A stretch of DNA of 64,000 bases from Thermoanaerobaculia bacterium (GCA_044869805.1 JBIOXV010000005.1:64034-128033), one strand, 5' to 3'; shown: positions 3,768 through 63,598, numbered from the stretch's first letter. Numbers and translations: made by a program. Notes: a model not told the origin generated them from the sequence alone.

Positions 3768-3783
3768 TGGCATCGGCGTTGCA
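3768..3783 (+). promoter_or_regulatory. Candidate sigma-54 (-24/-12) promoter upstream of the TPR-CRTAC1-TPR cassette
   Basis: TGGCAT-cggcg-TTGCA matches TGGCAC-N5-TTGCW with one mismatch. It lies about 130 nt upstream of the TPR gene start. An 8-bp stem-loop (CTCGAGGG...CCCTCGAG, 3836-3865) sits in the putative leader. Confidence 0.35.
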
Positions 3784-8986: not shown

Positions 8987-8998
8987 GAGAAGCTGCGC

Positions 8999-10250: not shown

Positions 10251-10931
10251 ATGAGAACCGAACGAAGAGTCTCGGCGGCGGGTGTCGCGCTAACGCTGAT
10301 CCTCTCGATGCTGGCAGCCTCTGAGGTTGGCGCAGAGGTCACGCTGACCCCGCGACAGGACGAAATCAAAGACAGCGAAGACAGCGCGCAGGACGCCGCT
10401 TCCCCCGAGGAACTCGCCCAAAAGGAGGCCGCTCTGAACAGCTTCCTCGGCTTCGACTGGAGCGCTGGGATCGCGGTCACTGGCGACTTCACCAGCGAGC
10501 GCCGGATCGACGACGCTGAGCTGGTGAATGGCGTAGTGCGGGTCAAGGACGAGTCTCGATATCTGCCCCGCATCATGCTCGAAGCACACTACCTCTTCCG
10601 CTCCTGGGGAGATCAAAAGATCGACCGAGCCCTGCGAGCCGACGGCAAGACGTACTTCGTCACCAAGGGGCATGGGCCCTTCGTAGCGATTCAGTCGAGC
10701 GACAAGCAGGCCCTCGATTCTTTCGCCGCGGGCTACCTCTTCGGCTGGCGTCCAGACTCTACCAAGGAATGGTCATTCGTCATGGGGGCCGGAGCGGTTC
10801 TCGATCCCAACGTTCAGATCCTCGGTGACGGGATCCAGGCCAACCAGGCGCTCCCCGAAGGAGAGACGGCGATCCGGTACAAGAAAGTGGACCGCTGGGG
10901 CTGGATGCTGATGTTCTCGTTCAAGCTCTGA
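10251..10931 (+). CDS. Secreted hypothetical protein, lower GC than the surroundings
   Basis: AAGGAGAG RBS. Signal peptide (LTLILSMLAASEVGAEV). C-terminus ends in aromatic-rich ...MLMFSFKL. GC is about 58% against a roughly 70% background. Confidence 0.6.
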   Translation: MRTERRVSAAGVALTLILSMLAASEVGAEVTLTPRQDEIKDSEDSAQDAASPEELAQKEAALNSFLGFDWSAGIAVTGDFTSERRIDDAELVNGVVRVKDESRYLPRIMLEAHYLFRSWGDQKIDRALRADGKTYFVTKGHGPFVAIQSSDKQALDSFAAGYLFGWRPDSTKEWSFVMGAGAVLDPNVQILGDGIQANQALPEGETAIRYKKVDRWGWMLMFSFKL

Positions 10932-11009
10932 GGCCGGGCGCCATCTGCTGCCGTCGGCCCTTGCCTCCTTACGAGCGGGGCGATACTCTCTCCGCCGTAA
11001 GGAGGAATC

Positions 11010-17993: not shown

Positions 17994-18004
17994 GTCGCGC
18001 ACAG

Positions 18005-18023
18005 TACTATGCGCCGCATAGTA
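18005..18023. promoter_or_regulatory. Perfect 19-nt palindrome TACTATGCG-c-CGCATAGTA, candidate PadR autoregulatory operator
   Basis: Seen directly in the sequence, 12-30 nt upstream of the proposed PadR start. PadR-type operators are short inverted repeats. Confidence 0.4.
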
Positions 18024-18148
18024 TGTCAACCATGCTCTCCCCGTGGCTGGCGTCTCCCGCGCAGCCGGGGCCTTTCGCTGCCTTGGCGAGCTCTGTCTAA
18101 GTGCTAGAAAATAAGTCAGCTACAGGCAGTTCCATCCGACGACCGCGC

Positions 18149-19204
18149 TCAGCGATCCGCCTCCCGATGGGCCACGACCTCCTCCGTAGAGAGCCGGGGC
18201 TCCGCCGCTCGCCTGCGATCGCGGATACCAGGAAGCAGCTTCTCGCTCAGCGGGCGCGCACCAGGTTTCGCCAGGCGCGGATCCTCCCGCGTGCACAGGT
18301 AGACGCCCGCCAGCACCACGACGCCGCCCGCGACCCAGGCCGGCCCGGGCACGCGACCGAACCACAGCCACTCGAAGGCCACGGTGAGCGGCGCGTTGAG
18401 GAACACGAACGCCGCCGCGGTGGTGGCGGGCAGCCGCTTCAGGGCCTCGTACCACAGCCAGAAGGCGAGCACGGTGCAGGCCAGGGCGAGGAACAGCGCC
18501 GCCCCGTAGCGCTCGCCGCCCCAGGCGGCGAGCTTGGCGTGGAAGCCGCGGTCGAAGGCGGCGAGCGGCAGCGTCGGCAGGCTGGCGATCCCCAGCACGA
18601 GGAAATTCAGGTGCAAGGGCGAGAAGCGCCCGACCAGCGGCTTCGACAGCACGGTGTAGAAGGCCCAGGAGACCGGCGCGCCGAGCAGCACCAGGGCGTC
18701 ACGCAGGTAGGCGGGCTCGACCTTGCGCCCCGCGCCGTAGACCACCACCGTGTAGAGGCCGGCGCAGGCGAGCGCGATGCCCGCCGCCTTGCGCCAGGTC
18801 GGCCGCTCGAGGCCCACCAGCGCCGCGAGCACGAAGGTGAGCACCGGGTTGAGCACCGTGAACAGCGAGCCGGTGCCGGCCGGCACGCGGTGGTGCCCGA
18901 CCGCGAAGGCGAGGTTGTAGCCCCACACCGCGAGCAGGCCGAGCAGCACGGTGAGCGGCGCGTGGTGAGCGAGGATGTGCCGCGCCTCGCGCCGCGCCGC
19001 GCGGTGGCAAGCGAACCACAGCAGGCAGAAGACGGCCACCGGCGCGAAGCGGGCCTCGACGAATTCGAGCGGCCCCAGGCGCTCGGCCGAAGGCACGCCC
19101 TCGCCCACCAGCGCCCGCACGGCGATGAACGAGTTGGCCCAGATGACGAAGACGACGAGCAGGATGAGGAAGGCGGGTCGCATGGCGGCCGGGAGCCTAT
19201 CCAA
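18149..19204 (-). CDS. DMT-superfamily (EamA-type) transporter
   Basis: Ten predicted TM helices in two EamA-like halves. The true start may be M8 (MRPAFLILLVV). Confidence 0.75.
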   Translation of the reverse strand: MDRLPAAMRPAFLILLVVFVIWANSFIAVRALVGEGVPSAERLGPLEFVEARFAPVAVFCLLWFACHRAARREARHILAHHAPLTVLLGLLAVWGYNLAFAVGHHRVPAGTGSLFTVLNPVLTFVLAALVGLERPTWRKAAGIALACAGLYTVVVYGAGRKVEPAYLRDALVLLGAPVSWAFYTVLSKPLVGRFSPLHLNFLVLGIASLPTLPLAAFDRGFHAKLAAWGGERYGAALFLALACTVLAFWLWYEALKRLPATTAAAFVFLNAPLTVAFEWLWFGRVPGPAWVAGGVVVLAGVYLCTREDPRLAKPGARPLSEKLLPGIRDRRRAAEPRLSTEEVVAHREADR

Positions 19205-19252
19205 ATCGCTGCGAGGAGGCCGGGCGCTGCGCGCAGCCCCCTCCCAGCGATC

Positions 19253-19990
19253 TCACCGTACGCTGGCGAGCGGCAAAGCCGGTGCTGGAGGCGCGGTGAC
19301 CACGATGGTGTCCGCCATGTGGTCGTGGATGCAGCGGCGGTCGTCGCGGAAGAGGAAGAGCGAGTCCACCAGCCAGAAGACCGGTCCCACCAGCGGGATC
19401 ACCTGCAGGCCGGTGGGGAGAAGGAAGCGCAGGCCGACCAGCCGCCCCAGCGAGGCGGTCTCGCCGCTGGCGCGCACGATGCGGATGCCGACCGCTCGCT
19501 TGCCGAGCGTCTGGCCGCTCCTGGCGAGCAGCCGGAGCTGGACGAGGGCCAACGCCACCAGCCCCAGGAGCCCGAGCAGGATGAAGATCGCGCCTCGGCT
19601 GCTCACCTCTCGCTCACCGGCGCTCGTCACCGGCAGGAGCACGGCGAGGTAGGGGATCAGGAAGGCAAAGTTGTCGAGCAGCTTGGCCCCCAGCCGGGTC
19701 CCGCGCTCGGCCAGCTCGAGCTCACCGACCGACACCGGCGCCTGCCCCACGGCGGCGGTCGGAGGAGCATAAGGATTGAAGCGCGCACCGGAGCCTCCGA
19801 GGTCGGCCCGGATTTCCTCCGCGCCACGATAGGGGCTCTCCGGCGGTCTGCGAAAACGGGAGAACACGATGCCGCAGGCCAGGCACTCGTCGCTGTCCGG
19901 CGGCCGCGTGTAACCGCACTTTGGACACTTGTCGCCGGGCGCGGTCTCCACCTCGAGGTCCGGGGAAATGCCGCTCGAGGGTTGGATCAT
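19253..19990 (-). CDS. RDD-family membrane protein with N-terminal zinc ribbon
   Basis: CPKCGY...CLACG zinc ribbon, then an RDD-type core (GQTLGKRAVGIRIV) with TM helices. Confidence 0.7.
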   Translation of the reverse strand: MIQPSSGISPDLEVETAPGDKCPKCGYTRPPDSDECLACGIVFSRFRRPPESPYRGAEEIRADLGGSGARFNPYAPPTAAVGQAPVSVGELELAERGTRLGAKLLDNFAFLIPYLAVLLPVTSAGEREVSSRGAIFILLGLLGLVALALVQLRLLARSGQTLGKRAVGIRIVRASGETASLGRLVGLRFLLPTGLQVIPLVGPVFWLVDSLFLFRDDRRCIHDHMADTIVVTAPPAPALPLASVR

Positions 19991-20025
19991 GGCTCGTCCT
20001 CCGCGAGGGTTCTACTCATCAGACG

Positions 20026-21372
20026 CTAGAGTAGGCCGCAACGTTTAATCTCCAGGTAGCGGTTGACCATGGCGACCGGCAGCTTCTCGGGCTCGACGTC
20101 CAGGGTGAGGACGCCCAGGCCGCGCACCTGCTCGTGGGCGCGCTCGCGGGCCGCCAGGTACTGCCGGCAGGCGGCCACGAAGAGGGCGTCCTCGAGCTTT
20201 CCGATCGGCCCCGCCGCCGCGGCCGCGAGCGCCGACTCGCGCAGGCTGGCGAGCAGCACCAGGTGGCGCTGCGAGAGGAGCTTCAGGGCCGGCAGCAGCT
20301 CGCTCGCGTCCTCGTCGCGCAGGTTGGAGACCACCACTACCAGGGCGCGGCGGCGCTCGAGCGTCGCCAGCCGCACCGCCGCGGCCGCGTAGTCGGGCGG
20401 CTCCGCCGAGGTCTGGAGGTCGTAGACCGCGGCCAGCAGCCGCGCGATGGCCGCCGGCCCTTTGGCGGGCGGCACCCACCGCGGCTCGCCGCTGAAGGTG
20501 GCGAGGCCCACGGCGTCGCCGTAGCGCGTGGCGGCGTAGGCCAGCAGCAGCACGGCGTTGAGCGCGTGGTCGAAGTGGGCGAGGTCACCCTCGCGGGCGC
20601 GCATCCGGCGCCCGCAGTCGACCATGAACACCACCCGCTGGTCGGTCTCGTCGTGGAAGTCGCGGGTGATCGGCTTGCCGCGCCGCGAGGTCGCCTTCCA
20701 GTCGATCTGGCGCAGCGAGTCGCCCTGCCGGAAGTCGCGCAGCTCGCGGAACTCGCGGCCCTCGCCGCGGCGCTCGCGGTGGCGGATGCCCATCCGCGCC
20801 AGCCGGTCGTCGACCGCCAGGTGGGCGTAGCCGAGCAGGGGCCGGAAGTTGGGCAGCACCCGCACCACCTGCGCGGCCCCCGCCCACCTGCGGCGCCGCC
20901 ACAGGCCGAGGGGCGAGGCGAGCAGCAGCTCGGTGGCGCCGAAGGCGGCGTCGCCGCGCTCGAGGGGCCGCACCTGGTACTCGAGCTCGACCCATCCGCG
21001 GGCCGGCACCGCCGTCGCCCGCGGCAAGCCCTCGAGCTCGGAGGCGGGCGGGTAGTGATCGAAGACCGCGAGCGCCACCGGCCGCCGGCCGGGGTTGTCG
21101 ATCTTGAGCCGCACCCGGGTGGGCACCCCGAGGGGCACCGCCCCCGCCACCTGCCGCTCGACCCGGGGCGTGCGCGTGCGGCCCACCCACAGCGCGTCGG
21201 CGACGGCGAGCGCGGCCAGGGCGCCGCCGGCCGCCAGCCAGGCCGGCGCGAAGGGCGCGGGAGCGAACGCCGCCGCCAGCCCGGCGGCGAGCCAGACAGC
21301 GGCGCCCGCCAGGGCGCGCGGCGCAGGCGTCAGGGCCGGCCGGCCGGCCACGGCCGGCGCCACCGTGCTCAC
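20026..21372 (-). CDS. DUF58 domain protein (VWA-like, MoxR partner)
   Basis: FRELRDFRQGDSLRQIDWKATSRRGKPITRDF...VVFMVDCGRRM is the DUF58 signature. The GTG start overlaps the MoxR stop (GTGA). The Arg-rich N-terminal extension in the track is rejected. Confidence 0.8.
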   Translation of the reverse strand: MSTVAPAVAGRPALTPAPRALAGAAVWLAAGLAAAFAPAPFAPAWLAAGGALAALAVADALWVGRTRTPRVERQVAGAVPLGVPTRVRLKIDNPGRRPVALAVFDHYPPASELEGLPRATAVPARGWVELEYQVRPLERGDAAFGATELLLASPLGLWRRRRWAGAAQVVRVLPNFRPLLGYAHLAVDDRLARMGIRHRERRGEGREFRELRDFRQGDSLRQIDWKATSRRGKPITRDFHDETDQRVVFMVDCGRRMRAREGDLAHFDHALNAVLLLAYAATRYGDAVGLATFSGEPRWVPPAKGPAAIARLLAAVYDLQTSAEPPDYAAAAVRLATLERRRALVVVVSNLRDEDASELLPALKLLSQRHLVLLASLRESALAAAAAGPIGKLEDALFVAACRQYLAARERAHEQVRGLGVLTLDVEPEKLPVAMVNRYLEIKRCGLL

Positions 21373-34245: not shown

Positions 34246-34320
34246 GGCGACGCGCGAGCGCACGTCGCTCCCTGCTTTGGCATCGCCCTTGCTCGTACTC
34301 CCCTGCGGGAGGAACGCTCC

Positions 34321-35169
34321 ATGAAGAACTCCAGAGACCGCCGTTTGTTCCTCGTTGCGCTCCTCGTCTCGACTCTGCTGGCGGCCGGCGGCTGCTCTCG
34401 CAGGGCCGGTGACGCGGCGAGCTCCGACCAGCAGGCGGCGCTCGATGCGCAGGCGCTAGCCCAGCGCGAAGCCGAGCTCGAGCGCCGGGAAAAAGAGATC
34501 GCCGCCAAGGAAGAGGCCGCGCGGCAGGCCGCCGCGCTCGAGGCGCGCGACCGCGAGCTCGACCGCCGCGAGCGCGAGCTCGGCGAGGCCGAGCGCATCG
34601 TCCAGACACCCAACCCGCCTCCGCCGCCGCCCGCGCCGCGCTACGCCACGGTTCCCGCCGGCACCGGCGTCGAGATCGAGTTCCTCGATGGCGTTTCGAG
34701 CCGCCTCAGCGGCCCTGGCGATCGCTTCGCGGCGCGCGTGACGCGCAATGTCGTGGTGGACGGCGAGGTCGCCATTCCTGCGGGCGCCAAGGTTCGCGGC
34801 ACGGTGACCGAGGCCGTGTCGCTCAAGAAGATCGGCGGCCGCGCGCGCCTGGGGCTCGACTTCGAGCAGCTCGTGCTGCCGTCCGGCGGCTCGGTGCCGA
34901 TCGCCGCCAACTTCGCCACGGCCGGCCGTAGCGAGACCGGGCGCGATGCGGCGACCATCGGCGGCGCCGCGGCCGGCGGCGCGGTGCTCGGCCGTGCCAC
35001 CGGGGGCAGGGACGACCGCGACCGCAACACCGTGCTGGGCGCGATCGTGGGCGCCGCCGTCGGCACCGCCGTCGCCTCCCGCACCGCGGGCAAGGAGGTC
35101 GAGATCCCGGCCGGCACGGTGATCGACATCGTGCTCGACGCCCCGGTCGAGGTGCGGTTGCGAAGATGA
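34321..35169 (+). CDS. Lipoprotein with coiled-coil and Gly-zipper-like C-terminal domain
   Basis: Lipobox LAAGGCS. E/R/A-rich coiled coil. Poly-Pro linker. C-terminal Gly/Ala-rich segment (GGAAAGGAVLGRATGG...GAIVGAAVGTAVA). Confidence 0.65.
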   Translation: MKNSRDRRLFLVALLVSTLLAAGGCSRRAGDAASSDQQAALDAQALAQREAELERREKEIAAKEEAARQAAALEARDRELDRRERELGEAERIVQTPNPPPPPPAPRYATVPAGTGVEIEFLDGVSSRLSGPGDRFAARVTRNVVVDGEVAIPAGAKVRGTVTEAVSLKKIGGRARLGLDFEQLVLPSGGSVPIAANFATAGRSETGRDAATIGGAAAGGAVLGRATGGRDDRDRNTVLGAIVGAAVGTAVASRTAGKEVEIPAGTVIDIVLDAPVEVRLRR

Positions 35170-53592: not shown

Positions 53593-54456
53593 ATGATGCG
53601 TGACTTCGTCGTCTCCGGCCTCGTCCTTCTCGCCCTGCCCGCGGCCGCCGCCGGGCCCCCTTCTGCCGCCGGCCCAGCGGCCGGCTACGCCGACCAGATG
53701 GCCCACCAGCACGCCGGCGACGCGCCGGTGGCGAGCCCGGCGGCCGCCGCCGAGCCCGCCTCGCCCGTGGAGTCGAGCCGCGTCACCTACGCAACGATCG
53801 ACGGCAAGGCGGTCGAAGGCTACCTGGCCAAGCCGAAGCAGGCCGCGGCCGGCGCCCCGGGGATCATCGTCATCCACGAGTGGTGGGGCCTGAACGAGAA
53901 CATCGAGTCCATGGCCCGGCGCCTCGCCGGCGAGGGCTACACGGCGCTCGCCGTGGACCTCTACGAGGGCCAGAAGGCGGCCAACCCCGAGGACGCGCGC
54001 AAGCTCACCGCCGCGGCGGGCGAGCGCAGGGAGAAGCTCGAGGACAACCTGCGCCAGGCCTACACCTACCTGGAGAAGGGCGGCGCCAGGAAGGTTGGCG
54101 TCATCGGCTGGTGCTTCGGCGGCGGCTGGTCGCTCGGCACGGCGCTCCTGCTGCCGGACAAGATCGACGCCGCGGTCGTCTACTACGGCCGCCTGGTGAC
54201 CGACTCCGAGAAGCTCGAGCCCTTGACCATGCCCGTGCTCGGCCTCTTCGGCAGCGAGGACCAGGGCATCCCCGTGGCCTCGGTGCGCGAGTTCGAGTCG
54301 GCGATGAAGGCGCTGGGCAAGAACGTCGAGATCCACGTCTACGAGGGCGCCAACCACGCCTTCGCCAACCCCTCCGGCACCCGCTACAAGGCCGACGCGG
54401 CCGAGGACGCGTGGCGGAAGACGGTCGCCTTCTTCGCCAAGCACCTGAAGGGGTAG
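53593..54456 (+). CDS. Secreted dienelactone hydrolase family protein
   Basis: AGGAGG RBS. Signal peptide. DLH fold motifs (GIIVIHEWWGL, GWCFGGG, ANHAF). Confidence 0.8.
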   Translation: MMRDFVVSGLVLLALPAAAAGPPSAAGPAAGYADQMAHQHAGDAPVASPAAAAEPASPVESSRVTYATIDGKAVEGYLAKPKQAAAGAPGIIVIHEWWGLNENIESMARRLAGEGYTALAVDLYEGQKAANPEDARKLTAAAGERREKLEDNLRQAYTYLEKGGARKVGVIGWCFGGGWSLGTALLLPDKIDAAVVYYGRLVTDSEKLEPLTMPVLGLFGSEDQGIPVASVREFESAMKALGKNVEIHVYEGANHAFANPSGTRYKADAAEDAWRKTVAFFAKHLKG

Positions 54457-54496
54457 GGCGGGCCACAGCACCCCGAGCTGCTGCATCAGCCGGAGC

Positions 54497-54871
54497 TCAG
54501 GACTTCCGGGCCGCGACCTCGGCGGCGAGCTTCTTGGGCGCTGCCAGGCGGTAGCTGGAAACCACCAGCTCCTCGACCTCCTGCCAGTCGACCTCGCCGG
54601 TGTCCAGGCGCAAGGCGACCCAGCCTCGGACCCCGATGTAGGCCGGCAGGTAGAACCGCTCCGGCTCCCGTCGCGCCAGCTCCTCGTGCTCGCCCATCGC
54701 GGTCTTGCAAGCGACCGCCACGATGCCGTCGCCGTGGTGATTGTCGAGGAAGTAGGCGAAGACTCTCTTGCGTACCCGGTAGGTGGCGTGGCTCCCCGTG
54801 CGCTCGCACGTCGCCTCGGGCAGGGCGAGGCAGATGCGCGAGATGGCGGAGAGGAGGGCGGCGGCGGCCAT
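54497..54871 (-). CDS. MmcQ/YjbR-family protein
   Basis: 124 aa with the family size and conserved pattern (SHATYRVRKRVFAYF...). Confidence 0.65.
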   Translation of the reverse strand: MAAAALLSAISRICLALPEATCERTGSHATYRVRKRVFAYFLDNHHGDGIVAVACKTAMGEHEELARREPERFYLPAYIGVRGWVALRLDTGEVDWQEVEELVVSSYRLAAPKKLAAEVAARKS

Positions 54872-54949
54872 GGGCCGTTCAGCCTATCGCGCCTCCGCGT
54901 TCGCCCAGACCGGCGCGACGACAGGTCGCTGCCAGCCTCGCACAAGGCC

Positions 54950-56266
54950 TCACGTGCGAGCCTTCTTCAACCTCACGCTGCCGCTGACCGCCGACAGCTC
55001 GAGCGCCGCGGTGGAGGTGGGGTCGGTGGCGGGGGACGCCAGGACATCGGTGGGGTCCCCTTTGGTGAGGCTGCCGGGGAAGTCGCTCTCGAGGTCGCCG
55101 TAGGTGCACTCGAGCGTGAAGGCCGGCGCCGGGGCGGCGGCCGGCCACTCGAAGTCGATCGAGCCGTAGCGCGTCTTCACCTGATGGCGGGCGGTCAGGG
55201 CGGCGCCGGCGAGGCCGGCCACCGCGACCTCGCCGCTCTCGTTGGAGATCGTCACCGCCCCGCCCACGCCGTCGACCGAGACCCCGGCGTACTGGTTGCG
55301 GATCGAGACCTCGCGCGCCGCGCCGGTGACCTTCACCGTGCCGCTGCCGCTCACCACTTCGACCGGGCCGGCGACCTCGGAGACCTCGACCGAGCCGTAC
55401 TCGCCGTCGATCTTCACCCGGCCGCCGATGCGCGCCAGCCGGATGGGGCTCGACTGCGTGCTGACCGTCACGTCGCCGGTCGCGTCCTCGATGGTCACCG
55501 CGCCGTAGGTGTCCTTCACCGAAACGGCCCCGCCGGCCTCCCGGACCTCGACCTCGCCGCTCGTCACCGCGATCTCGACCGGCCCGGTGACGCGCGACAG
55601 CACCAAGTTCCCGTACTGGTTTTCGAGCCGCGCCCCTCCCGCGAGGTTGCTGATTTCGACCGAGCCGCTGCCAGCCTCGAGGACCAGGTCGCCCTCCACG
55701 TCGGAGAGCTCCACGTCGCCGTAGCGGTTGTCGATCTCGGCACCGCCGCGCAGGTTGGCGGCCGTGAGGTCGCCCGAGGTGAGCGCCACCGCGAGCGCGC
55801 CCTCGACGCCCGTGACCGTCACGTCGCCATAGCGGTTGTCGAGATCGAGGCGGGTTCCCTTGGGCACCTCGAGCACGATCCTCAGGTCGTAGGACCGGTT
55901 GACCTCGAAGCGGAAGAAGTCCCCGTCGCCCCAGGAATCGTCCTGCACCGGGCCGGTGGGCTCGATTTCGAGGCCGTCCGCCGCCTCGCGGATGGCGACG
56001 TCGAAACGCTGGTCGATCGCCGCCATCCACTGCTTGTCGCGCGAGGCGAACTCCAGGTCGGCCGTCACCTTGACCTCGGTGCCGGTACCGGCCCGCACCG
56101 TCAGCTCGGCGGACTCGGCCCTGAGGCGCACCGGCCGGCCGCCGGCCGCGGTCTTCTCGAGGTGCCTGGTCTTGCGCTCGAGGGGGCCGGTGGGCGCCGC
56201 CAGCAGCACGAAGAGGGCGAGGCCCGAAAGCATGGCGATGATCCGGTACATAGACAGGGGCCGCAT
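54950..56266 (-). CDS. DUF4097-family beta-repeat protein (putative adhesin-like), membrane-anchored
   Basis: N-terminal TM. Many repeats of the form (NRYGDV/ENQYGNL/DTYGAV)-x-(VSLT)-x-V-x-G. Confidence 0.75.
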   Translation of the reverse strand: MRPLSMYRIIAMLSGLALFVLLAAPTGPLERKTRHLEKTAAGGRPVRLRAESAELTVRAGTGTEVKVTADLEFASRDKQWMAAIDQRFDVAIREAADGLEIEPTGPVQDDSWGDGDFFRFEVNRSYDLRIVLEVPKGTRLDLDNRYGDVTVTGVEGALAVALTSGDLTAANLRGGAEIDNRYGDVELSDVEGDLVLEAGSGSVEISNLAGGARLENQYGNLVLSRVTGPVEIAVTSGEVEVREAGGAVSVKDTYGAVTIEDATGDVTVSTQSSPIRLARIGGRVKIDGEYGSVEVSEVAGPVEVVSGSGTVKVTGAAREVSIRNQYAGVSVDGVGGAVTISNESGEVAVAGLAGAALTARHQVKTRYGSIDFEWPAAAPAPAFTLECTYGDLESDFPGSLTKGDPTDVLASPATDPTSTAALELSAVSGSVRLKKART

Positions 56267-56384
56267 GGGGTCTTCTCCTCGCCAAGCAAGACGAGAAGGG
56301 AGGGCGAATTGTTCGCGGCGGAGGCTCGGAGCCAGAGCAGGAACCGTGGCGGGTGGACCGCGCAGCAGGCTCCTGCTCGAACTC

Positions 56385-56780
56385 TCAGGCTGCGTGGCTC
56401 AGCAGGCGATCCGCCAGCGCCGCCAGCTCGGGCAGGGGCATGGGCTTGCCGAGCATGGCGTCGGCGCCCAGCCCCAGGGCCTCGGCCTCGGCCTCGGGCG
56501 AGCCGTAGGCGGTGAGCACCACGATGCGCATGCCCGGCCGCCGGCGGCGGGCGAAGGCCACCAGGTCGAGGCCCTCGGCAGGCTCGCGGGCGGAGAGGCG
56601 GAGATCGACGATCATCAGCGCGTAGGGCCGCTCGGCGATCAGCGCTTCGGCGGCCGAGCGTTCGCCGGCGGCGTCGACTGCGTACCCGCGGGCGGAAAAA
56701 AAGTCGCGCAGAGCGAAGAGGATCGTGGTCTCGTCGTCGACCACCAAGAGGCGAGGCAGGGGTGGCTCGGGGAAGACCAC
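56385..56780 (-). CDS. Single-domain response regulator (REC)
   Basis: LLVVDDE...DLRL...GADAMLGKP receiver motifs. A GTG start at 56780 is proposed because the track ATG (56810) lies inside a sigma-54 promoter. TTG at 56747 is an alternative. Confidence 0.65.
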   Translation of the reverse strand: MVFPEPPLPRLLVVDDETTILFALRDFFSARGYAVDAAGERSAAEALIAERPYALMIVDLRLSAREPAEGLDLVAFARRRRPGMRIVVLTAYGSPEAEAEALGLGADAMLGKPMPLPELAALADRLLSHAA

Positions 56781-56793
56781 GCTTCCCTGTCGC

Positions 56794-56809
56794 CGCAAGC
56801 CACGTGCCA
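56794..56809 (-). promoter_or_regulatory. Sigma-54 -24/-12 promoter (TGGCACG-tggc-TTGCG)
   Basis: Exact TGGCAC-N5-TTGC on the minus strand, 50 nt downstream of the NtrC-family activator gene and immediately upstream of the REC/DUF4097 genes. Confidence 0.55.
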
Positions 56810-56858
56810 TGGCCCAGGGCGGGCCGGGCCCGCGCTTCCCGGCCCAGCGCGTCCCGAT

Positions 56859-58217
56859 TCAGGACGGCTGTCCGGATTCTGGAAACCTGATCCCGAAACG
56901 CTTGAGCTTCTGGTACAGCGTGCTGCGCGGCACGCCGAGCCGCTCGGCGACGCGCGCCACGCGCCCACCCTCCTCCGCCAGCACGCGCTCGATCAGCCGC
57001 CGCTCCATCTGCTCGAGGGTGAGGCGGGTGTCGATCGCCTCGCCCGCGGCTACGCCCGGGGCGAAGCGCAGGTCACGGGCATCGACCACCGCGCCTTCGG
57101 CCAGCAGGATGGCCCGCTCGAGCACATTGCGCAGCTCGCGGAGGTTGCCCGGCCAGCGGTAGGCGGCGAGCGCCTTCATGGCCTCGGAGGTGAGCTCGAC
57201 CTCGCCGCGGCCGAGCTCCGGCCGCAGCCGCTCGAGCACCGTCGCCACGAGCTGCGGCAGGTCGTCCAGGCGCTCGCGCAGCGGCGGGATCACCAGCGGG
57301 ATCGCCGCCAGCCGGTAGTAGAGATCGCTGCGGAAGGTGCGCCGCTCGACGAGCAGCGAGAGGTCCCAGTGGGTGGCCGAGATCAGGCGGATGTCCACGG
57401 CCCGGTCCTTGACGTCGCCCAGCCTGCGGAACCGCTTCTCCTCCAGCACCTTGAGCAGCTTGGGCTGGACTCCGACCTCGAGGTCGCCGATCTCGTCCAG
57501 GAACACCGTGCCGCGGTGCGCGGCCTCGAGCAGGCCGGCTTTGTGGAACGCGGCGCCGGTGAAGGCGCCCTTGACGTGCCCGAAGAGCTCGCTTTCGACC
57601 AGCTCCCGTGACAGGCCGGCGCAGTTCAAGTCCACGAACGCCTCCTCCGCGCGCGGGCCGCGGGCGTGCAGCCAGGCGGCGAGCACCCCCTTGCCGGAGC
57701 CGGTCTCGCCCTGGATCAGCAGCGGGCTCTCGCTGTCCACCACCTTCGCCGCCTGGGCCCGGAGCTCCCGGATGCCGCGGCTCGAGCCCACGAACGGGTC
57801 GAGGGGCCGGCGCAGCCCCCCGGCCTTGCCCGCCATCGTCTTCTGCCGGTTGCGCTGGTTCTCGAGCGCCCGCTCGAGGATCACCTCCAGCGCCGAGAGC
57901 TCCACCGGCTTGGTCAGGAAGTGCTCGGCTCCCTCGCGGATCGCCTCGACGGCGAGGTCGATCGAGCCGTAGGCGGTGAGGATCACCACCGGCAGCCGCA
58001 GGTGGGCCTCTCGGAGGCCGGCCAGCAGCGCCAGGGCGTTGCCGTCCGGCAGGTGGTGATCGACCACCGCGGCGGCGAACGGCTGCGCCTGCAGCCGCTC
58101 CAGCGCTTCGCGCTGGGTGGCGGCCTCGGCCACCTCGAAGCCCCGGCTCTCCAGGAAGGCGCGGACGCCGAAGCGGACGGCGTCCTGGTCGTCGACGACG
58201 AGGATGCGCCCGCGCAT
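56859..58217 (-). CDS. Sigma-54-dependent response regulator (NtrC family: REC + AAA+ + Fis HTH)
   Basis: Start at MRGRILVVDD. GAFTGA loop (FGHVKGAFTGA), Walker A GETGSGKG, R-finger region. C-terminal HTH (RVAERLGVPRSTLYQKLKRFGI). Confidence 0.85.
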   Translation of the reverse strand: MRGRILVVDDQDAVRFGVRAFLESRGFEVAEAATQREALERLQAQPFAAAVVDHHLPDGNALALLAGLREAHLRLPVVILTAYGSIDLAVEAIREGAEHFLTKPVELSALEVILERALENQRNRQKTMAGKAGGLRRPLDPFVGSSRGIRELRAQAAKVVDSESPLLIQGETGSGKGVLAAWLHARGPRAEEAFVDLNCAGLSRELVESELFGHVKGAFTGAAFHKAGLLEAAHRGTVFLDEIGDLEVGVQPKLLKVLEEKRFRRLGDVKDRAVDIRLISATHWDLSLLVERRTFRSDLYYRLAAIPLVIPPLRERLDDLPQLVATVLERLRPELGRGEVELTSEAMKALAAYRWPGNLRELRNVLERAILLAEGAVVDARDLRFAPGVAAGEAIDTRLTLEQMERRLIERVLAEEGGRVARVAERLGVPRSTLYQKLKRFGIRFPESGQPS

Positions 58218-59497
58218 CAGCCGGGGGCCGCCGGCTGCGAGGCGGCGCCGCGCTCGAGGGGCAGGCGCAGCAGCAGCTCGCCACCGCCGCCGTCGCGGTT
58301 GCCGGCCTGGATGGCGCCGCCGTGCTGCTCGACGATGCGATGGACGATCGACAACCCCAGGCCGGTGCCGTCCCGGCGGCGGCTGAAGAACGGCTCGAAG
58401 ACCTTGGGCAGATCCTCGGGCCGGAAGCCGGGGCCGGAGTCGCGCACCGCGCAGACCAGGGCCGGCGGCCGCCCTTCCGGGTCCAGCCCGCCCTCGACCT
58501 CGACCACCCCCGGCGCGGGGCTGTGCTGGATGGCGTTCTCGAGCAGGTTCTGGAGCACCTGCAGGATGCGTTGGCGGTCCATCGGCACCGGCGGCAGCCC
58601 GGGGGCGAGCCGCGGCAGGATTTCCACTTGCTCGCGCCCGGCGAGCGATGAACAGTTGGCGATCGCCTCCGCCACCACGTCGGCCAGGCTCTCGGTGCCG
58701 ACCTCGAGCCGCGGCGGCTTGCCGTAGTCGAGCAACTGGTTCATCAGCCGGTTCAGGCGCGCGAGCTGGCTGCGCAGCACGTAGAGGTACTGGCCGTACT
58801 CCTCGCGGCTGCCGAAGCGGCTCTCGAAGGCGTCGAGCGCCGCCGAGATGCCGAACAGGGGATTGCGCACCTCGTGCGCCACGCCCGCCACCAGCGAGCC
58901 CATGGCCGACATCACCTCGCTCTTGCGCAGCGACTCTTGGAGTCGCACCAGGCCGGTCACCTCGCGCGCCACCACGATCACGCGGTCCTCGCCCGGCGGC
59001 CCGTCCACCGATTCCGAAACGCTGGCTGACCCCGAGACACTGGCGGACCCCGAAACGCTCGCCGATAAATCCCAGGTGGCACCGGACACCAGGTCGACGG
59101 CCGAACGGGAGCGCGACACCCGGCCGCGGCCGACCTCCGCCGCCAGGGCCTCGGCGGCCGCCCACGGCTCCCCCCGCCCCAGCTCCCCCACCGCCAGGCC
59201 GAGGAGCTCGCGGTAGGGCCGGCCGGCGAGCAGGCTCGCGGCCAGGTTCATGCGCCGCACGCGCAGCCGCCCGTCCACCACCAGCAGCACGGACTCGACG
59301 GCGTCGAAGGTGAGCTGCCACTCGCGGGCCGCGTTGGCGATCGCCTCGCGCAGCCGCTCCTGCTCGCCCACCTCCCGCTCCCGCGCCTTGAGCGCCGCGT
59401 TCTCCCGCGCCAGGCGCAGGTTGCGCCGCCGGGCGGCGAGCAGCCCGAGGCTCAAGCCCAGGGCCGAAGCCGTGGCGAGTGCCGTGGTGCGCTTCAT
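58217..59497 (-). CDS. Sensor histidine kinase (TM, PAS-like, HisKA, HATPase_c)
   Basis: H-box VAGVAHEVRNPL, N-box LLENAIQHS, G-boxes DSGPGF and GTGLGLSIV. 1-nt overlap with the RR gene. Contains an SASVSG x3 repeat. Confidence 0.8.
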   Translation of the reverse strand: MKRTTALATASALGLSLGLLAARRRNLRLARENAALKAREREVGEQERLREAIANAAREWQLTFDAVESVLLVVDGRLRVRRMNLAASLLAGRPYRELLGLAVGELGRGEPWAAAEALAAEVGRGRVSRSRSAVDLVSGATWDLSASVSGSASVSGSASVSESVDGPPGEDRVIVVAREVTGLVRLQESLRKSEVMSAMGSLVAGVAHEVRNPLFGISAALDAFESRFGSREEYGQYLYVLRSQLARLNRLMNQLLDYGKPPRLEVGTESLADVVAEAIANCSSLAGREQVEILPRLAPGLPPVPMDRQRILQVLQNLLENAIQHSPAPGVVEVEGGLDPEGRPPALVCAVRDSGPGFRPEDLPKVFEPFFSRRRDGTGLGLSIVHRIVEQHGGAIQAGNRDGGGGELLLRLPLERGAASQPAAPG

Positions 59498-59690
59498 CAG
59501 TCCTCCTAAAAGCAGACAGTGTGTCTGGATCTCAGACGACGGGACACGAAATCATTTCAACGCGTGGCCAAAGACGGTCGCAAACTGCTAACCCTCACCG
59601 CGCGGCCCCTGGTACGCCTCTTGCTGAGTCTCGGATTGTTTCTAGCTACACCTGAAGTGCGTCGGCTCGTATCACGACATTTCTCGTAGT

Positions 59691-61061
59691 ATGGATCTAC
59701 AGAATGTCGAACCCTTGGTAGGGCCGTCCGCGCAGAGCCAAGGGCGGAGGAACGCGATCTTGATCGAGAAGACCGTGCTCGACAACGGTATCCGGGTCCT
59801 CACCGAGGCGGTCCCGGGCTCGCGCTCGATCTCGATCGGCGTGCTGGTCGACGCCGGACCGGCCGACGAGCAGGGCGGTGCCCGCGGCATCGCCCACCTG
59901 GTGGAGCACCTGCTGTTCCAGGGCACGGCGAGCCGCGACGCCCTGTCGATCGCCCGTCTGATGGACGGCGCCGGCGGGCAGGTCGGGGGCTTCGTCACCC
60001 GCGACTACACCTGTTTCACCGCCCATGTGCTCGACGACTACCGCTACCACGCGCTCGACCTGCTGGGCGACGCGCTGCTCAACTCCACCTTCCCCGAGGC
60101 GGCCGTGGAGCGACAGAAGGAGGCGATCGCCTGCGAGATCGAGGCGCGACGCGACTCCCCGCCCCACTTCGCTGAGGACCTGGTCAAGCAGCTCGCCTGG
60201 AGCGGCCACCCGCTCGGCCGCCCGGTGGCCGGCACCCCGGAGGCGGTGCGCGGCCTGACGCGCGAGGACGCCATCTACTTCGTCGCCCGCCACTACACGC
60301 CGGACCGCATCCTGGTCGCCGCCGCCGGCCACCTCGAGCACGCCGACTTCGTGGCCCAGGCCCGCGACGCCTTTTGGCGCCTGCTGGGCGAGGGCGTGCC
60401 CCGCAGGCGCGAGGCCGCCGGCCACTGCGGCGGCGTGGTGGTGCAGCACGCGCCGATCGCTCAGGCCTACTTCGCGCTCTCGCTTCCGGCCTTCGCCTTC
60501 GCCGCCCCCGAGCGCTACGCGCTGCACGTGCTCGACCGCCTGCTGGGCGGAGGCATCTCCTCGCGGCTCTTCCGGCGGGTGCGGGAGGAGCGCGGGCTGG
60601 TCTACTCGATCGGCAGCTCCTACCAGGCCTACGCCCAGGGCGGCACGCTGCTGGTCGAGGGCTCGACCACGCCCGAGAACCTGCCCGCCGTGCTGCGGCT
60701 CGTCTGCGCCGAGCTGGGCAAGCTGGCGACCGGCGAGGAGCCGGTCGACGACGAGGAGCTGTCGCGCTCCGTCACCTCGCTCATCAACCAGCACCTGATC
60801 GCCGCCGAGAGCTCGGCGGCGCGCATGAGCCGCCTGGCCACCCAGGAGCTCTACCTCGGCCGGCCGCTGCCGGCCGAGGAGATCGTCTACGCCCTGTCCC
60901 AGGTCGATCGCCGGTGCCTGGCGGAGCTCGCCCAGGGCTGGCTCGCGCCGGGCCTCGAGCACGCCGCGCTCGCCGTGGTGGCCGCCGAGGATCGCCTGGA
61001 CGCCGGCGCCGACTCGCTCCGCGTCCTCCTGGCCGAGGGCTGCCCTGCTGCCGTTCTGTAA
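59691..61061 (+). CDS. M16-family (insulinase/pitrilysin-like) zinc peptidase
   Basis: Inverted zinc motif HLVEHLLFQG (HxxEH) and downstream E residues. 456 aa. Confidence 0.8.
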   Translation: MDLQNVEPLVGPSAQSQGRRNAILIEKTVLDNGIRVLTEAVPGSRSISIGVLVDAGPADEQGGARGIAHLVEHLLFQGTASRDALSIARLMDGAGGQVGGFVTRDYTCFTAHVLDDYRYHALDLLGDALLNSTFPEAAVERQKEAIACEIEARRDSPPHFAEDLVKQLAWSGHPLGRPVAGTPEAVRGLTREDAIYFVARHYTPDRILVAAAGHLEHADFVAQARDAFWRLLGEGVPRRREAAGHCGGVVVQHAPIAQAYFALSLPAFAFAAPERYALHVLDRLLGGGISSRLFRRVREERGLVYSIGSSYQAYAQGGTLLVEGSTTPENLPAVLRLVCAELGKLATGEEPVDDEELSRSVTSLINQHLIAAESSAARMSRLATQELYLGRPLPAEEIVYALSQVDRRCLAELAQGWLAPGLEHAALAVVAAEDRLDAGADSLRVLLAEGCPAAVL

Positions 61062-61081: not shown

Positions 61082-61237
61082 TGCCACTGGACCCTGCCAT
61101 CAAGAGGACCTGGATCGAGATCCAGAAGAGCCACAACGTGCCGGTCAACGCCATCGGCGTGCCCATCGACCCCAAGGATCAGATGACCCTGCGGGTGTGG
61201 CGCGAGGAAGGCATCGACAAGTTCATCCGCACCTGAG
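61082..61237 (+). CDS. Small ORF (51 aa), absent from the track, with a strong SD
   Basis: GGAGGA 8 nt upstream of the ATG. Genome-typical GC3-rich codons. MPLDPAIKRTWIEIQKSHNVPVNAIGVPIDPKDQMTLRVWREEGIDKFIRT. No family recognised. Confidence 0.4.
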
Positions 61238-61280
61238 CCGCACGCCGCAGCGGAGGGAGCTCAAGGAGAGAGGCGACAGC

Positions 61281-62312
61281 ATGCTGGCCGTCGATCGACA
61301 ACGGGATCTGCTGAAGAAGGGGATCGCCGCCGCCAAGCAGGGCGACAAGGCGGCGGCGCGAGAGAAGCTGCTGGAGGCGGCCGAGCTCGCGCCGCACCAG
61401 GAGCTGGCCTGGCTTTGGCTCGCCTCGGTGGGGGCCAACCGCGACGAGACCATCTCCTTCCTGGAGAAGGCGCTCGCCATCAACCCCGGCGACGAGCGCA
61501 CCCGGAGCTGGCTCGAGCGGGTGCGCGCCGGGCGCACCCAGAAACGCAAGCACTGGCGCTGCCCGTTCTGCCACGGCGAGTCGCTGGTGGAGGTCGCCAA
61601 GTGCCCGCAGTGCAAGGCGATGGTGCGTCTCGACGACCTCGACGGCCTGCTCGCCAACGCCGAGGCCGACGGCGACATCCTGCGCGCCGCCCTCGACCGG
61701 CTGGAGGCCTTGAGCGGCGACGCGGTCACCTTCGAGGTGCACCTGGCGATCGCCCTGGGCTACCTCAACCTGCGGCGTACCTACGAGGGCCTGACGCGGC
61801 TGCGCGTGGCGCGGCAGCTCAAGCCCGACGATCCCCGGCTCGCCGCGGTGATCGAGGATCTGGCCCGCCGCCAGGAGGCGAGTGCCCGCACCGCCGCCTA
61901 CCTGGCGCGGCCGCCGGCGCCGGGCCGGCCGGGACGCAAAGTGCTGGTGGTCGACGACAGCCCGACCGTGCTCAAGATCGTCGGCGTGGCGCTCGAACGC
62001 CACGGCCACGAGGTGCTGGTGGCTGGCAACGCCCTGCAGGCCCTGGCCAAGCTCGACGAGCTGGTGCCCGACCTCATCCTGCTCGACGTCTCGATGCCGC
62101 ACATGGACGGCTACCAGCTCTGCAAGCTGGTACGCGCCAACCCCAGCACCAGCGCCGTGCCGGTGGTGATGCTGTCGGGCAAGGACGGCTTCCTCGACAA
62201 GGTCCGCGGCCGTCTGGCCGGCGCCACGGACTACATCACCAAGCCGTTCGACCCCGCCCACCTGGTCAGGGCCGTCGAGCTTCACTGCCCGCGGGAGGCG
62301 CATGCCGGTTGA
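61281..62312 (+). CDS. Response regulator with N-terminal TPR-like/zinc-ribbon domain and C-terminal CheY-like receiver
   Basis: AAGGAGAG RBS. Start at MLAVDRQRDLL. CPFCHGESLVEVAKCPQCK zinc ribbon. REC motifs KVLVVDDSP...LILLDVSMP...DYITKPF. Confidence 0.75.
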   Translation: MLAVDRQRDLLKKGIAAAKQGDKAAAREKLLEAAELAPHQELAWLWLASVGANRDETISFLEKALAINPGDERTRSWLERVRAGRTQKRKHWRCPFCHGESLVEVAKCPQCKAMVRLDDLDGLLANAEADGDILRAALDRLEALSGDAVTFEVHLAIALGYLNLRRTYEGLTRLRVARQLKPDDPRLAAVIEDLARRQEASARTAAYLARPPAPGRPGRKVLVVDDSPTVLKIVGVALERHGHEVLVAGNALQALAKLDELVPDLILLDVSMPHMDGYQLCKLVRANPSTSAVPVVMLSGKDGFLDKVRGRLAGATDYITKPFDPAHLVRAVELHCPREAHAG

Positions 62313-63210
62313 CGGGGATCTGAGGGACTTCGAGATCGGGAGCGTCGTGCAGCTGCTGTGCACGGAGGGGCGCTCGGTGGGCTTGGTGGTGCGCCGCCGC
62401 GGCGAGGAGGGGGTGCTCTACCTCGAGGAGGGCGAGATCGTCCACGCCTTGCTCGGCCCGCTCGAGGGCGAGAAGGCGGTGTTCGAGCTCCTGACCTGGC
62501 AGGACGGCACCTTCCGCATCACCGACCGCGTGCGCTCGCCGGGTAGGAGCATCCACACCGGCTGGCGGCACTTGATGCTGGAGGCGGCGCGGCAGATGGA
62601 CGAGAGCCTGCGCGACCGCGCCGATGCCGCGGAGCTCTCTCTGGCAGGTTTCGCCCCCGGGCTCCCGATCGCCAACGACGAGCTCGGCTGGGAGGTCGCC
62701 GAGAGCGACGACGACCTCGAGGGCGAGCTCATGCTGCTGCTGTCGCAGCTCGAGCAGGGCATGGCGCGGCTGAGCTCCGACAAGACCAGGAAGCGGCCCC
62801 TGGCCGCGCTCGAAGGGTTGGCCGACATGCTCAACCAGGCGGTGGCCTTCGCCGAGAGCTCCGCGCACGGGAAGGCGGCGGCGGGGCTCGCCCTGAGCAC
62901 CGCGTTCTCGGCCTCCTCGGTGCTCAAGGGCGCCATCGCCCGCCATCCGATGGCGCGCCTGTTGACCGTGCAGTCGAACCGCCTCTCGGTCGCCAACGCC
63001 GCCAGCTTCTACCGCACCTGGGCCGCCGACGCGGCGGAGCGGGGGCGGGTGTTCCGCGACATCGCCCGCGCCCTGGGCCTGGCTCTCGAGACCTTCCTCG
63101 AGCTCTGTGGCCGTCGCCTGCGCTCGCCCGCCGCCGCGACCGAATGGCGCGAAAGCTACGGCGTCTTCCTCCGTGACCTGGCGGTCGCCATCGACCGCAT
63201 CCCTTTCTGA
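62302..63210 (+). CDS. PATAN/DUF4388 domain protein
   Basis: N-terminal GDLRDFEIGSVVQLLCTEGRSGLV...YLEEGEIVHA matches the DUF4388 (PATAN) core, then an alpha-helical C-terminus. 11-nt overlap with the upstream REC gene. Confidence 0.65.
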   Translation: MPVDGDLRDFEIGSVVQLLCTEGRSVGLVVRRRGEEGVLYLEEGEIVHALLGPLEGEKAVFELLTWQDGTFRITDRVRSPGRSIHTGWRHLMLEAARQMDESLRDRADAAELSLAGFAPGLPIANDELGWEVAESDDDLEGELMLLLSQLEQGMARLSSDKTRKRPLAALEGLADMLNQAVAFAESSAHGKAAAGLALSTAFSASSVLKGAIARHPMARLLTVQSNRLSVANAASFYRTWAADAAERGRVFRDIARALGLALETFLELCGRRLRSPAAATEWRESYGVFLRDLAVAIDRIPF

Positions 63211-63232
63211 TCGGTTCGTGAAGGAGATCTCG

Positions 63233-63598
63233 ATGCCCGGCCAGACGATCCTGCTAGTCGACGACAGCCCCACCGACCTGAAGCTGATGACGCAGGCGCT
63301 CTCGCCACGGGGCTACCACCTGCTGACCGCGGCGGACGGCGAGGAGGCGCTGGAGAAGGCGGCGAGCGTGCGGCCCGACCTCATCTTCCTCGACGTCGTG
63401 CTGCCGAAGAAGAACGGCTTCCAGGTCTGCCGTCAGTTGAAGACCACGCCCGACACCAAGGACATCAAGATCGTGCTGGTGACCAGCAAGACGCAGGACA
63501 GCGACCGCTTCTGGGGTTTGAAGCAGGGCGCCGACGAGTACCTGACCAAGCCGTTCTCCGACGACGAGCTGCGCGCCGCCGCGGCTCGCAACCTGTAG
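63233..63598 (+). CDS. CheY-like single-domain response regulator
   Basis: AAGGAGA RBS. ILLVDDSPTDL, LIFLDVVLP, KIVLVTSK, and EYLTKPF receiver motifs. Confidence 0.85.
   Translation: MPGQTILLVDDSPTDLKLMTQALSPRGYHLLTAADGEEALEKAASVRPDLIFLDVVLPKKNGFQVCRQLKTTPDTKDIKIVLVTSKTQDSDRFWGLKQGADEYLTKPFSDDELRAAAARNL

Follow-up and report, generated by a model that had tools for sequence, protein, structure and literature searches.

A candidate two-component sigma-54 module with its own receiver gene in a Thermoanaerobaculia bacterium, and its relatives in soil bacteria

The locus described here lies in a stretch of 64,000 nucleotides from a Thermoanaerobaculia bacterium (GCA_044869805.1 JBIOXV010000005.1:64034-128033), which was analysed as a whole, is called the window below and is numbered from its first letter. 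The window has a G+C content of 71%. On its minus strand, the genes for a sensor histidine kinase and an NtrC-type activator of the bacterial enhancer-binding protein (bEBP) class are followed by a sigma-54-type promoter, P1, and then by genes for a single-domain response regulator, a beta-helix protein and a YjbR-family protein. In the order in which they are met along that strand, the features are as follows.

59497 to 58217, minus strand: sensor histidine kinase, 426 amino acids (Pfam HisKA and HATPase_c)
58217 to 56859, minus strand: NtrC-type sigma-54 activator (bEBP), 452 amino acids (Pfam Response_reg, Sigma54_activat, AAA_lid_14 and HTH_8)
56794 to 56809, minus strand: promoter P1, sigma-54 -24/-12 element TGGCACG-TGGC-TTGC-G (motif scan and identity among orthologues)
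56778 to 56784, minus strand: predicted transcription start at about 56784-56781 and receiver GTG at 56780-56778 (from sigma-54 geometry)
56385 to 56780, minus strand: single-domain response regulator, 131 amino acids from GTG 56780 (Response_reg is its only Pfam domain)
56266 to 54950, minus strand: beta-helix protein, 438 amino acids, Toastrack/DUF4097-like (AlphaFold2, Foldseek and homologues)
54497 to 54871, minus strand: YjbR-family gene (Pfam YjbR)

A single base, in TGATG at 58217, is common to the kinase stop codon and the activator start codon, which agrees with the 1-nt overlap reported in the original prediction, a short reading of this DNA made from the sequence alone. The kinase ATG is preceded by an AGGAGG ribosome-binding site, and the N terminus of the protein consists of a hydrophobic segment and some 190 residues to which no domain is assigned, followed by HisKA and HATPase_c. 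The activator has the composition of an NtrC-type bEBP, with a receiver domain, an AAA+ Sigma54_activat domain and a C-terminal Fis-type helix-turn-helix; the GAFTGA motif attributed to it previously is present at 57569, within the expected Pfam architecture, and ESELFGH is also found. Its nearest solved relatives are NtrC4 and NtrC1 of Aquifex, and it is the one bEBP encoded in the window. Its TGA stop occupies 56861-56859.

P1 reads TGGCACGTGGCTTGC at 56809-56795 on the minus strand, 49 nt past this TGA, so that the exact TGGCACG-N4-TTGC element which the original prediction had placed at 56794-56809, about 50 nt beyond the activator, is indeed there. It is the sole exact match to TGGCAC-N5-TTGC in the window, where 0.07 would be expected, and at least one such match arose in 7 of 100 shuffles of the window. 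Sigma-54 sites were also scored over 12 positions of TGGCACG-N4-TTGCW, in which GG and GC, spaced by ten bases, were obligatory. By this measure the P1 16-mer, TGGCACGTGGCTTGCG, matches 11 of the 12 specified positions, and three sites in the window score at least 11 against 0.3 expected. Loci are designated here by contig, numbered from L001, and the 16-mer is identical in all four orthologous contigs, L001, L003, L004 and L005. Around it much has changed: the base before the motif, A in the window, is G in L003; the spacer from activator stop to motif measures 50 nt in L003 but 185 nt in L001; and from the motif to the receiver core the orthologous contigs have drifted apart, with a frame shift. 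P1 is thus non-coding, faces a gene and is conserved regardless of reading frame, which in L001 is both shifted and interrupted by an in-frame stop. This pattern of conservation, an identical element amid diverged flanks, spacer and frame, fits a non-coding functional element and neither a coding sequence nor chance. A scan of 54300-60000 for sigma-70 promoters and intrinsic terminators found none.

A search of metagenome contigs with the kinase, which supplied the more distant set of loci, returned 80 loci at 41-56% kinase identity. The activator lies immediately downstream in nearly all of them, at 53-65% identity, and a -24/-12 motif follows it on the same strand in about 45 of the loci that include the activator 3' end. 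The motif takes forms such as TGGCCCA-N4-TTGCT and TGGCGCG-N4-TTGCT and is most often found 104-108 nt past the activator stop. The locus belongs to a widespread, unnamed family that occurs in soil bacteria. In the majority of the distant loci, a leader of about 170 nt comes after the promoter, and behind it stand one to three PEP-CTERM genes and, last, an orthologous receiver; in the window the receiver precedes the Toastrack/DUF4097-like beta-helix gene, and the operon carries no PEP-CTERM tail.

Sigma-54 transcription usually starts 11-14 nt after the GC, which would place the P1 start at about 56784-56781 and leave a 5' untranslated region of 0-4 nt. GTG 56780 sits 15 nt after the C of the -12 element. 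Counted in the same way, the start is a GTG at +15 in L003 and L013, a GTG at +16 in L012 and in L001 and L005 (these two also have an ATG at +10), and an ATG at +16 in L014, +13 in L016 and +14 in L022. The start codon therefore tracks the promoter and not the receiver domain, since it falls 13-16 nt after the -12 C in eight of nine receiver-first lineages, whereas the receiver core lies anywhere between 26 and 46 nt from the promoter. A Shine-Dalgarno sequence is absent in most receiver-first loci. Beyond the GTG, the window and L003 differ at three positions, two of them synonymous and one a third-position Glu-to-Asp change, and the peptide PEPP recurs in L012. On this comparison the receiver starts at GTG 56780, the conserved start.

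Other starts fared less well. The ATG given by the open reading frame (ORF) track (56810-56808) shares bases with the TGG of the -24 element, as had been pointed out, and was rejected as a start: L003 has GTG in its place, and in L001 and L005 it is not in the receiver frame, which there contains a stop codon immediately 5' of the -24 element, 20 nt upstream of the -12 C. Of the two downstream starts offered in its place by the original prediction, GTG 56780 is the conserved one, whereas TTG 56747, along with GTG 56744, was discarded as unconserved (CTG in L003; CTT and GTC in L001) and as truncating strand beta-1. Given the spacing of 13-16 nt in eight of nine lineages and the usual geometry of sigma-54 initiation, the receiver mRNA is probably leaderless or nearly so; to that extent the geometry is consistent with the earlier suggestion of a leaderless transcript, with L016 and L067 departing from it. 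A literature search on sigma-54 and leaderless mRNAs brought up, judging by titles and abstracts, no paper that deals with a leaderless transcript dependent on sigma-54.

Three palindromic sites provide candidates for the binding of the activator.

56870 to 56884, unstranded: candidate enhancer site A, TTCCAGAATCCGGAC (15.9 bits with the distant-locus matrix, second-best in the window)
56851 to 56865, unstranded: candidate enhancer site B, GTCCTGAATCGGGAC (11.1 bits, third-best in the window)
59523 to 59537, unstranded: strongest candidate enhancer site, GTCTGGATCTCAGAC (20.1 bits, best in the window)

Sites A and B are both GTC-N9-GAC palindromes and lie 19 bp apart from centre to centre. Site A, which is conserved in L001 and L003, falls inside the last codons of the activator, with its centre at about -94 from the predicted transcription start; site B includes the activator TGA and is centred at about -75. 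The third site is found 26-40 nt upstream of the kinase ATG, at the other end of the operon, where a weak partner palindrome lies beside it at 59503-59517; its counterpart in L001, GTCTGAGATTCAGAC, scores 20.4 bits. The distant loci carry two conserved 15-bp palindromes, GTCCAAAGTCTAGAC, which contains a TAG stop, and GTCTGAATNNNAGAC, which begins 19-20 bp downstream of the start of the first, and pairs of palindromes spaced in this way occur at the activator stop codon in about 35 of them. A symmetric matrix was derived from 36 distinct sequences of the second site, all of them from distant loci. Its top three hits in the 64 kb are 59523, 56870 and 56851, at the two promoters that flank the operon, and in L001 the equivalent three sites again rank top. 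Across the family, 74 of 88 strong sites lie 60-170 nt upstream of the -24 element, a proportion that is partly circular given that the matrix was trained on such sites. The palindromes are likely to be the enhancer sites of the activator. The proposal that activator and P1 form a cognate pair is strengthened by the identity of P1 in L001, L003, L004 and L005, by the family-wide position of the motif, by the paired palindromes and by the matrix hits.

Some further observations concern these sites and their surroundings. A generic inverted-repeat finder missed the short palindromes, which became visible only once orthologous regions were set side by side. The fourth-best matrix hit, at 18095, was dropped, there being no sigma-54 motif nearby; at 18000-18030 the window holds a palindrome, ACAGTACTATGCG/CGCATAGTATGT, just upstream of an ORF at 18101-20029, which is operator-like and unrelated to the sigma-54 circuit. 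In L001, an inverted repeat at 6345-6442, with 37-nt arms (92% complementary) and a 24-nt loop, separates the activator stop from P1 and moves the enhancer about 135 nt farther from the promoter; no repeat of this type was found in any other fetched locus. In L022 the module of palindrome pair plus promoter occurs three times in series, the two extra pairs (8980-9090 and 10857-10983) each being followed by a -24/-12 motif some 75-95 nt later and preceding a HEAT-repeat gene and genes that match nothing in Pfam; the third module is the one behind the activator gene. A divergent copy of the palindrome-plus-promoter module occurs in L012.

The strongest palindrome belongs to a second promoter region, which points away from the kinase.

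59610 to 59625, plus strand: promoter P2, sigma-54-like element TGGTACG-CCTC-TTGC-T (score 11/12; points away from the kinase)
59760 to 61061, plus strand: M16 peptidase gene (Pfam Peptidase_M16 and M16_C; downstream of P2)

The P2 motif, TGGTACGCCTCTTGCT, matches 11 of the 12 positions and is kept in L001 as TGGTATGCCTCTTGCT (TGGTATG...); the palindrome at 59523-59537 lies about 87 nt upstream of the motif and about 105 nt upstream of the P2 start. The M16 gene probably begins at TTG 59760, the ORF-track ATG at 59691 being probably too far upstream; in L001, an in-frame stop lies two codons before the corresponding TTG, and the encoded protein is 83% identical. Between the kinase and M16 genes, the window and L001 agree at nearly 90% of positions over the first 200 nt or so of the intergenic region, as far as about 59690, a higher conservation than that of the proteins encoded on either side. 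The 65 nt or so past P2, at 59626-59690, are almost identical to L001, and conservation collapses beyond them; the stretch shows no better folding than shuffled controls (z = -0.5). A promoter for the kinase on the opposite strand might lie in it, or else a leader element; speculatively, the palindrome over the kinase upstream region could also mediate autoregulation. Since P2, with the strongest palindrome upstream of it, faces the M16 peptidase gene, the circuit is not fully self-contained: the set of kinase, activator and P1 that the original prediction described under that term is present, but the term itself overstates the case.

Beyond the M16 gene, at 61197-63598 on the plus strand, the window encodes a TPR-receiver protein, a DUF4388 protein and another receiver, and in L012 a DUF4388-containing ORF stands behind the divergent palindrome-plus-promoter module. 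On this evidence DUF4388 proteins may belong to the regulon. Elsewhere in the window, a good sigma-54-type motif, TGGCATCGCCCTTGCT, at 34278-34293 on the plus strand lies 29 nt before the ATG of an ORF at 34321-35169, which encodes a glycine-zipper 2TM domain (Rick_17kDa_Anti); no GTC-N9-GAC is found near it, and a different activator would be needed. Further near-consensus -24/-12 motifs are TGGCTCGACTCTTGCT at 207-222 (plus strand, 11/12) and TGGCATCGGCGTTGCA at 3768-3783 (plus strand).

The gene directly behind P1 encodes, as had been supposed, a stand-alone receiver: it has the receiver domain and no other, and the acidic pocket and the Asp, Thr and Lys residues of a single-domain response regulator are intact. 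Among 31 orthologues, conservation extends to the DD, D, T and K phospho-acceptor residues, and the motifs VDDE, DLRL, LTAYGS and KP are invariant or nearly so. Its nearest relative within the window is the receiver domain of the activator (38% identity, E=1e-18), two unrelated receivers being 30% identical. An orthologous receiver is present in about 20 of the roughly 25 loci that extend far enough, and by this count it is the conserved cargo of the family. In L015 (5679-7303) and L018 (289-1814), an orthologous kinase is directly followed by an orthologous receiver of 55-56% identity; the fetched DNA of these two loci contains no activator and no sigma-54 motif. Family-wide presence, the pairing in L015 and L018, intact phospho-acceptors and likeness to the activator's receiver domain lead us to the proposal that the kinase most likely has the receiver as its second substrate and that the receiver would in turn feed back on the circuit. 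Receivers that act as phosphate sinks or hubs are known and offer a precedent for such feedback (PMC5964349).

The beta-helix protein follows the receiver after a gap of 118 nt. Its AlphaFold2 model (pLDDT 91.5) consists of a helix at residues 6-22 and then about 40 short strands arranged as a long beta-helix. The top Foldseek matches are the 'putative adhesin' structures 4QRK, 3JX8, 4OPW and 3PET, with E values of 6e-7 for 4QRK and 6e-4 for 4OPW and TM-scores that are low, 0.16-0.33, because the beta-helix of the window protein is much longer. The original prediction had named it a DUF4097 protein. A gene for a beta-repeat protein is there, but the Pfam family PF13349 (DUF4097) does not match it even at E<=10, and the sole Pfam match, a sub-threshold hit to GldM_2nd, is spurious, so that no direct Pfam assignment to DUF4097 can be made. 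Support for remote kinship comes from the fold, from a score of 51 bits against the LiaG model (NCBIfam NF049997), whose cut-off of 285 is not reached, and from homologues: among the matches listed, 39 of 51 carry PF13349, including those at 31-35% identity. A search of PDB sequences with the alignment profile of the protein returned nothing. The assignment to DUF4097/Toastrack, as modelled, holds at the level of remote homology and fold only.

4QRK and 4OPW are among the structures used to define the Toastrack fold, which unifies DUF4097, DUF2154 and DUF2807 (PMC11237479), and its studied members, LiaG and YvlB, are anchored in the membrane and linked to envelope stress, with no function known for them (PMC9239133). 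The hydrophobic N terminus of the window protein suggests that it, too, is membrane-anchored. A scan of a genome collection gave only two relatives, and the window's own clade is represented by four contigs; identity is 74% in L001, an Acidobacteriota metagenome-assembled genome, 89% in L003 and L004 and 75% in L005. More distant homologues adjoin genes of the ECF sigma type. YjbR lies directly after the beta-helix gene in L001, L003 and L004, with an HTH_3 gene between them in L005, and is possibly the last gene of the P1 operon.

Several features of the PEP-CTERM-first relatives merit description in their own right. Their leader of about 170 nt is found in L023, L034, L045, L053, L054 (8571-8744), L065, L072, L080, L084, L088 and others. 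Its elements are GGCACGTGCCAAT, a hairpin CTCTCG..CGAGAG that differs from subgroup to subgroup, and a stem, GAGCG/CGCTC, closing a loop that hardly varies, YGCAYTTGCCCCGC. When these hairpins were specified by hand, 82% of cells pair against 20-54% with the partners slid, and double changes occur in 26 cells against 12 in shuffles; RNAalifold found no structure in the leaders, and Rfam no match for them. Over the whole window, Rfam gave nothing at gathering thresholds, and within the locus at E<=1 it gave two chance-level small-RNA hits inside coding sequence and nothing else. The kinase of these relatives has 759 residues (L054 4810-7089), with an N-terminal receiver-like region and PAS domains, as against 426 residues and one N-terminal hydrophobic segment in the window. 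Within the family, then, one sensory input has been swapped for another.

Comparison with described systems places the locus outside the named equivalog families with which it was compared. The best NCBIfam matches of the kinase are AtoS (193 against a cut-off of 646) and ZraS, both far below threshold, and the activator falls short of the equivalog models for AtoC (350 against 714), NtrC (332 against 558.6), ZraR (291 against 760) and PrsR (TIGR02915; 338, range 338-358, against 502.6). The orthologues in L054 and L012 likewise miss the equivalog cut-offs. In E. coli, AtoS and AtoC are a kinase and an NtrC-type activator with a sigma-54 promoter for the downstream target operon atoDAEB, and AtoC binds inverted repeats upstream of this promoter. 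The window shares this layout of kinase, activator, promoter and target, and AtoS and AtoC are its best NCBIfam hits, but its cargo is a receiver and a beta-helix protein in place of catabolic enzymes, its candidate enhancer overlaps the activator stop codon and its message is apparently leaderless. In the ZraS/ZraR-zraP system, one activator serves divergent sigma-54 promoters from shared intergenic sites beside its own operon, much as P2 and the kinase upstream region are arranged here, the window differing in its cargo and in having a second promoter downstream of the activator.

PrsK/PrsR, also of the NtrC type, has a sigma-54 promoter ahead of PEP-CTERM genes and, upstream, a motif for the activator (PMC1569441, Haft et al. 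2006); its motif contains TTTACA and is confined to Proteobacteria (PMC1569441). In Aquincola, experiments are reported to have shown that a PEP-CTERM gene depends on RpoN (PMC9850573). Most of the distant relatives of our locus likewise carry one to three PEP-CTERM genes after the promoter, but the family motif here is GTC-N9-GAC, without TTTACA. PrsK is absent among the 25 best kinase hits. Membership of the PrsK/PrsR system was rejected on score, and PEP-CTERM genes lie downstream only in the distant relatives and not in the window operon. As all equivalog cut-offs are missed and the palindrome is unlike the PrsR motif, the locus is, on present sequence comparisons, a new and unnamed NtrC-type system of standard regulatory design, with minor peculiarities: a candidate enhancer within the activator stop codon, a receiver that is very probably inducible and a probably leaderless message.

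The cargo and the proposed feedback also have counterparts. The LiaG/YvlB Toastrack proteins of Bacillus subtilis combine an N-terminal anchor with an extracytoplasmic single-stranded beta-helix and are encoded beside an envelope-signalling two-component system (PMC9239133; PMC11237479). The comparison with YvlB-type proteins that the original prediction had recommended shows a shared Toastrack fold, matching 4QRK and 4OPW, and a predicted N-terminal anchor in the window protein. The window locus differs in having no PspA, PspC, LiaF or LiaI partners and in its probable control by sigma-54 in place of LiaRS. Osp, a receiver-like protein, is reported to exert negative feedback on the histidine kinase CckA as a direct inhibitor (PMC9430884) and is a precedent for the feedback proposed for our receiver, with the difference that in the latter all phospho-acceptors are intact, making a phosphate sink equally possible.

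Taken together, these considerations lead us to a reading of the locus, to which we assign a probability of about 0.7, as a two-component sigma-54 module made up of the kinase, the activator, paired palindromes, P1 and P2, and an induced receiver with feedback. A signal would cause the kinase to phosphorylate the receiver domain of the activator, and the activated NtrC-type protein would bind the two GTC-N9-GAC palindromes at the end of its own gene. ATP hydrolysis by the activator would open the sigma-54 holoenzyme at TGGCACG-N4-TTGC (56809-56795), and transcription would begin at about 56784-56781, virtually on GTG 56780, giving a message that is leaderless or nearly so. This message would encode the 131-residue receiver, the anchored, extracytoplasmic beta-helix protein and possibly YjbR. 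The same activator would probably drive the divergent P2 (59610-59625) towards the M16 gene through the palindrome at 59523-59537. Once induced, the receiver would most likely act as the second phosphoryl acceptor of the same kinase and so establish feedback. Sequence and comparison establish the promoter, the palindromes, the order of the genes, the geometry of the start codon and the intact phospho-acceptors, whereas binding of the palindromes by this activator, the exact point at which transcription begins and the sense of the feedback are inferred.

Several observations weigh against this reading. The spacing of 13-16 nt between the -12 C and the start codon has a sole exception in L067, and in L016 an AAGGAG lies between the -12 element and the ATG. 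A palindrome score of 19.8 bits was reached in one of 30 mononucleotide shuffles, so that a single palindrome site is not significant alone, and position and conservation carry the argument; for a bEBP, enhancer centres at -75 and -94 are among the shorter distances known. In L006, where a DUF4097 gene comes straight after a related activator, neither a promoter nor a palindrome can be recognised. The case for co-transcription of the receiver, beta-helix and YjbR genes consists of their adjacency and the lack of a predicted terminator. Finally, an RpoN box was not found in the six-frame translation of the window, which covers only part of the genome.

Of the alternatives, the one that survives best accepts P1 as real but regards the receiver as an output branch, which on phosphorylation would bind and control a target other than DNA, for example envelope or exopolysaccharide (EPS) machinery linked to the PEP-CTERM or Toastrack cargo. 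Single-domain receivers acting by protein contact are documented, namely MrrA (PMC5964349) and an activator of an EPS phosphoglycosyl transferase (PMC12802240), and the receiver of this family always travels with secreted or surface cargo. Set against this is the lack of any family-conserved candidate target gene besides the kinase and the activator, as well as L015 and L018, where the receiver is paired with the kinase alone. We regard an output branch as a serious rival, though distinctly less probable than feedback within the module. It is unlikely that the receiver and beta-helix genes are expressed mainly by read-through from the kinase and activator genes, with P1 merely boosting this and translation independent of a leaderless message. 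Read-through would be in keeping with the absence of a predicted terminator between activator and P1, with the Shine-Dalgarno sequence of L016, which would exist only on a read-through transcript, and with L006, which has no promoter altogether. It sits badly with a start codon whose distance is fixed to the -12 element and not to the receiver core, with the lack of a Shine-Dalgarno sequence in most lineages, and with the 37-nt-arm hairpin between activator and P1 in L001, which would impede it.

Quite improbable is a scheme in which P1 is served by another sigma-54 activator encoded elsewhere and the palindromes bind a different regulator. The window, as a part of the genome, leaves room for such a protein, but the palindromes are locked to the stop codon of this activator across a family whose kinases are only 41-56% identical to that of the window, and the same motif flanks both sides of the operon. 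That the -24/-12 match is a functionless chance occurrence in GC-rich DNA, of the kind contained in those 7 of 100 window shuffles, is scarcely credible for a motif kept perfectly in four contigs with diverged flanks and a shifted frame and represented at the equivalent position throughout the family.

The value of these findings lies in annotation and the generation of hypotheses and not in new concepts, because the regulatory design is standard. For an uncultured, GC-rich soil lineage, the locus supplies a cleanly delimited set of activator, enhancer and promoter, and it makes testable predictions: a GTC-N9-GAC binding motif, two target promoters, a start at GTG 56780 and a leaderless, sigma-54-dependent message. 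It also ties a Toastrack/DUF4097 protein to a defined signalling input, and a defined regulator would open a way to study proteins of the LiaG/YvlB type. At the level of the family, it points to an unnamed NtrC-type system linked to PEP-CTERM surface proteins outside the Proteobacteria. We raise tentatively, at somewhat less than even odds, the broader idea that soil bacteria, probably Acidobacteriota and neighbouring groups, share a widespread 'three-component' sigma-54 circuit not described before. It would combine an enhancer at the stop codon, receiver feedback, a leaderless mRNA where the receiver comes first, and interchangeable surface cargo in the form of a Toastrack beta-helix or of PEP-CTERM proteins preceded by a structured leader RNA. 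If this were true, it would supply the non-proteobacterial PEP-CTERM regulator noted as missing by Haft et al. 2006.

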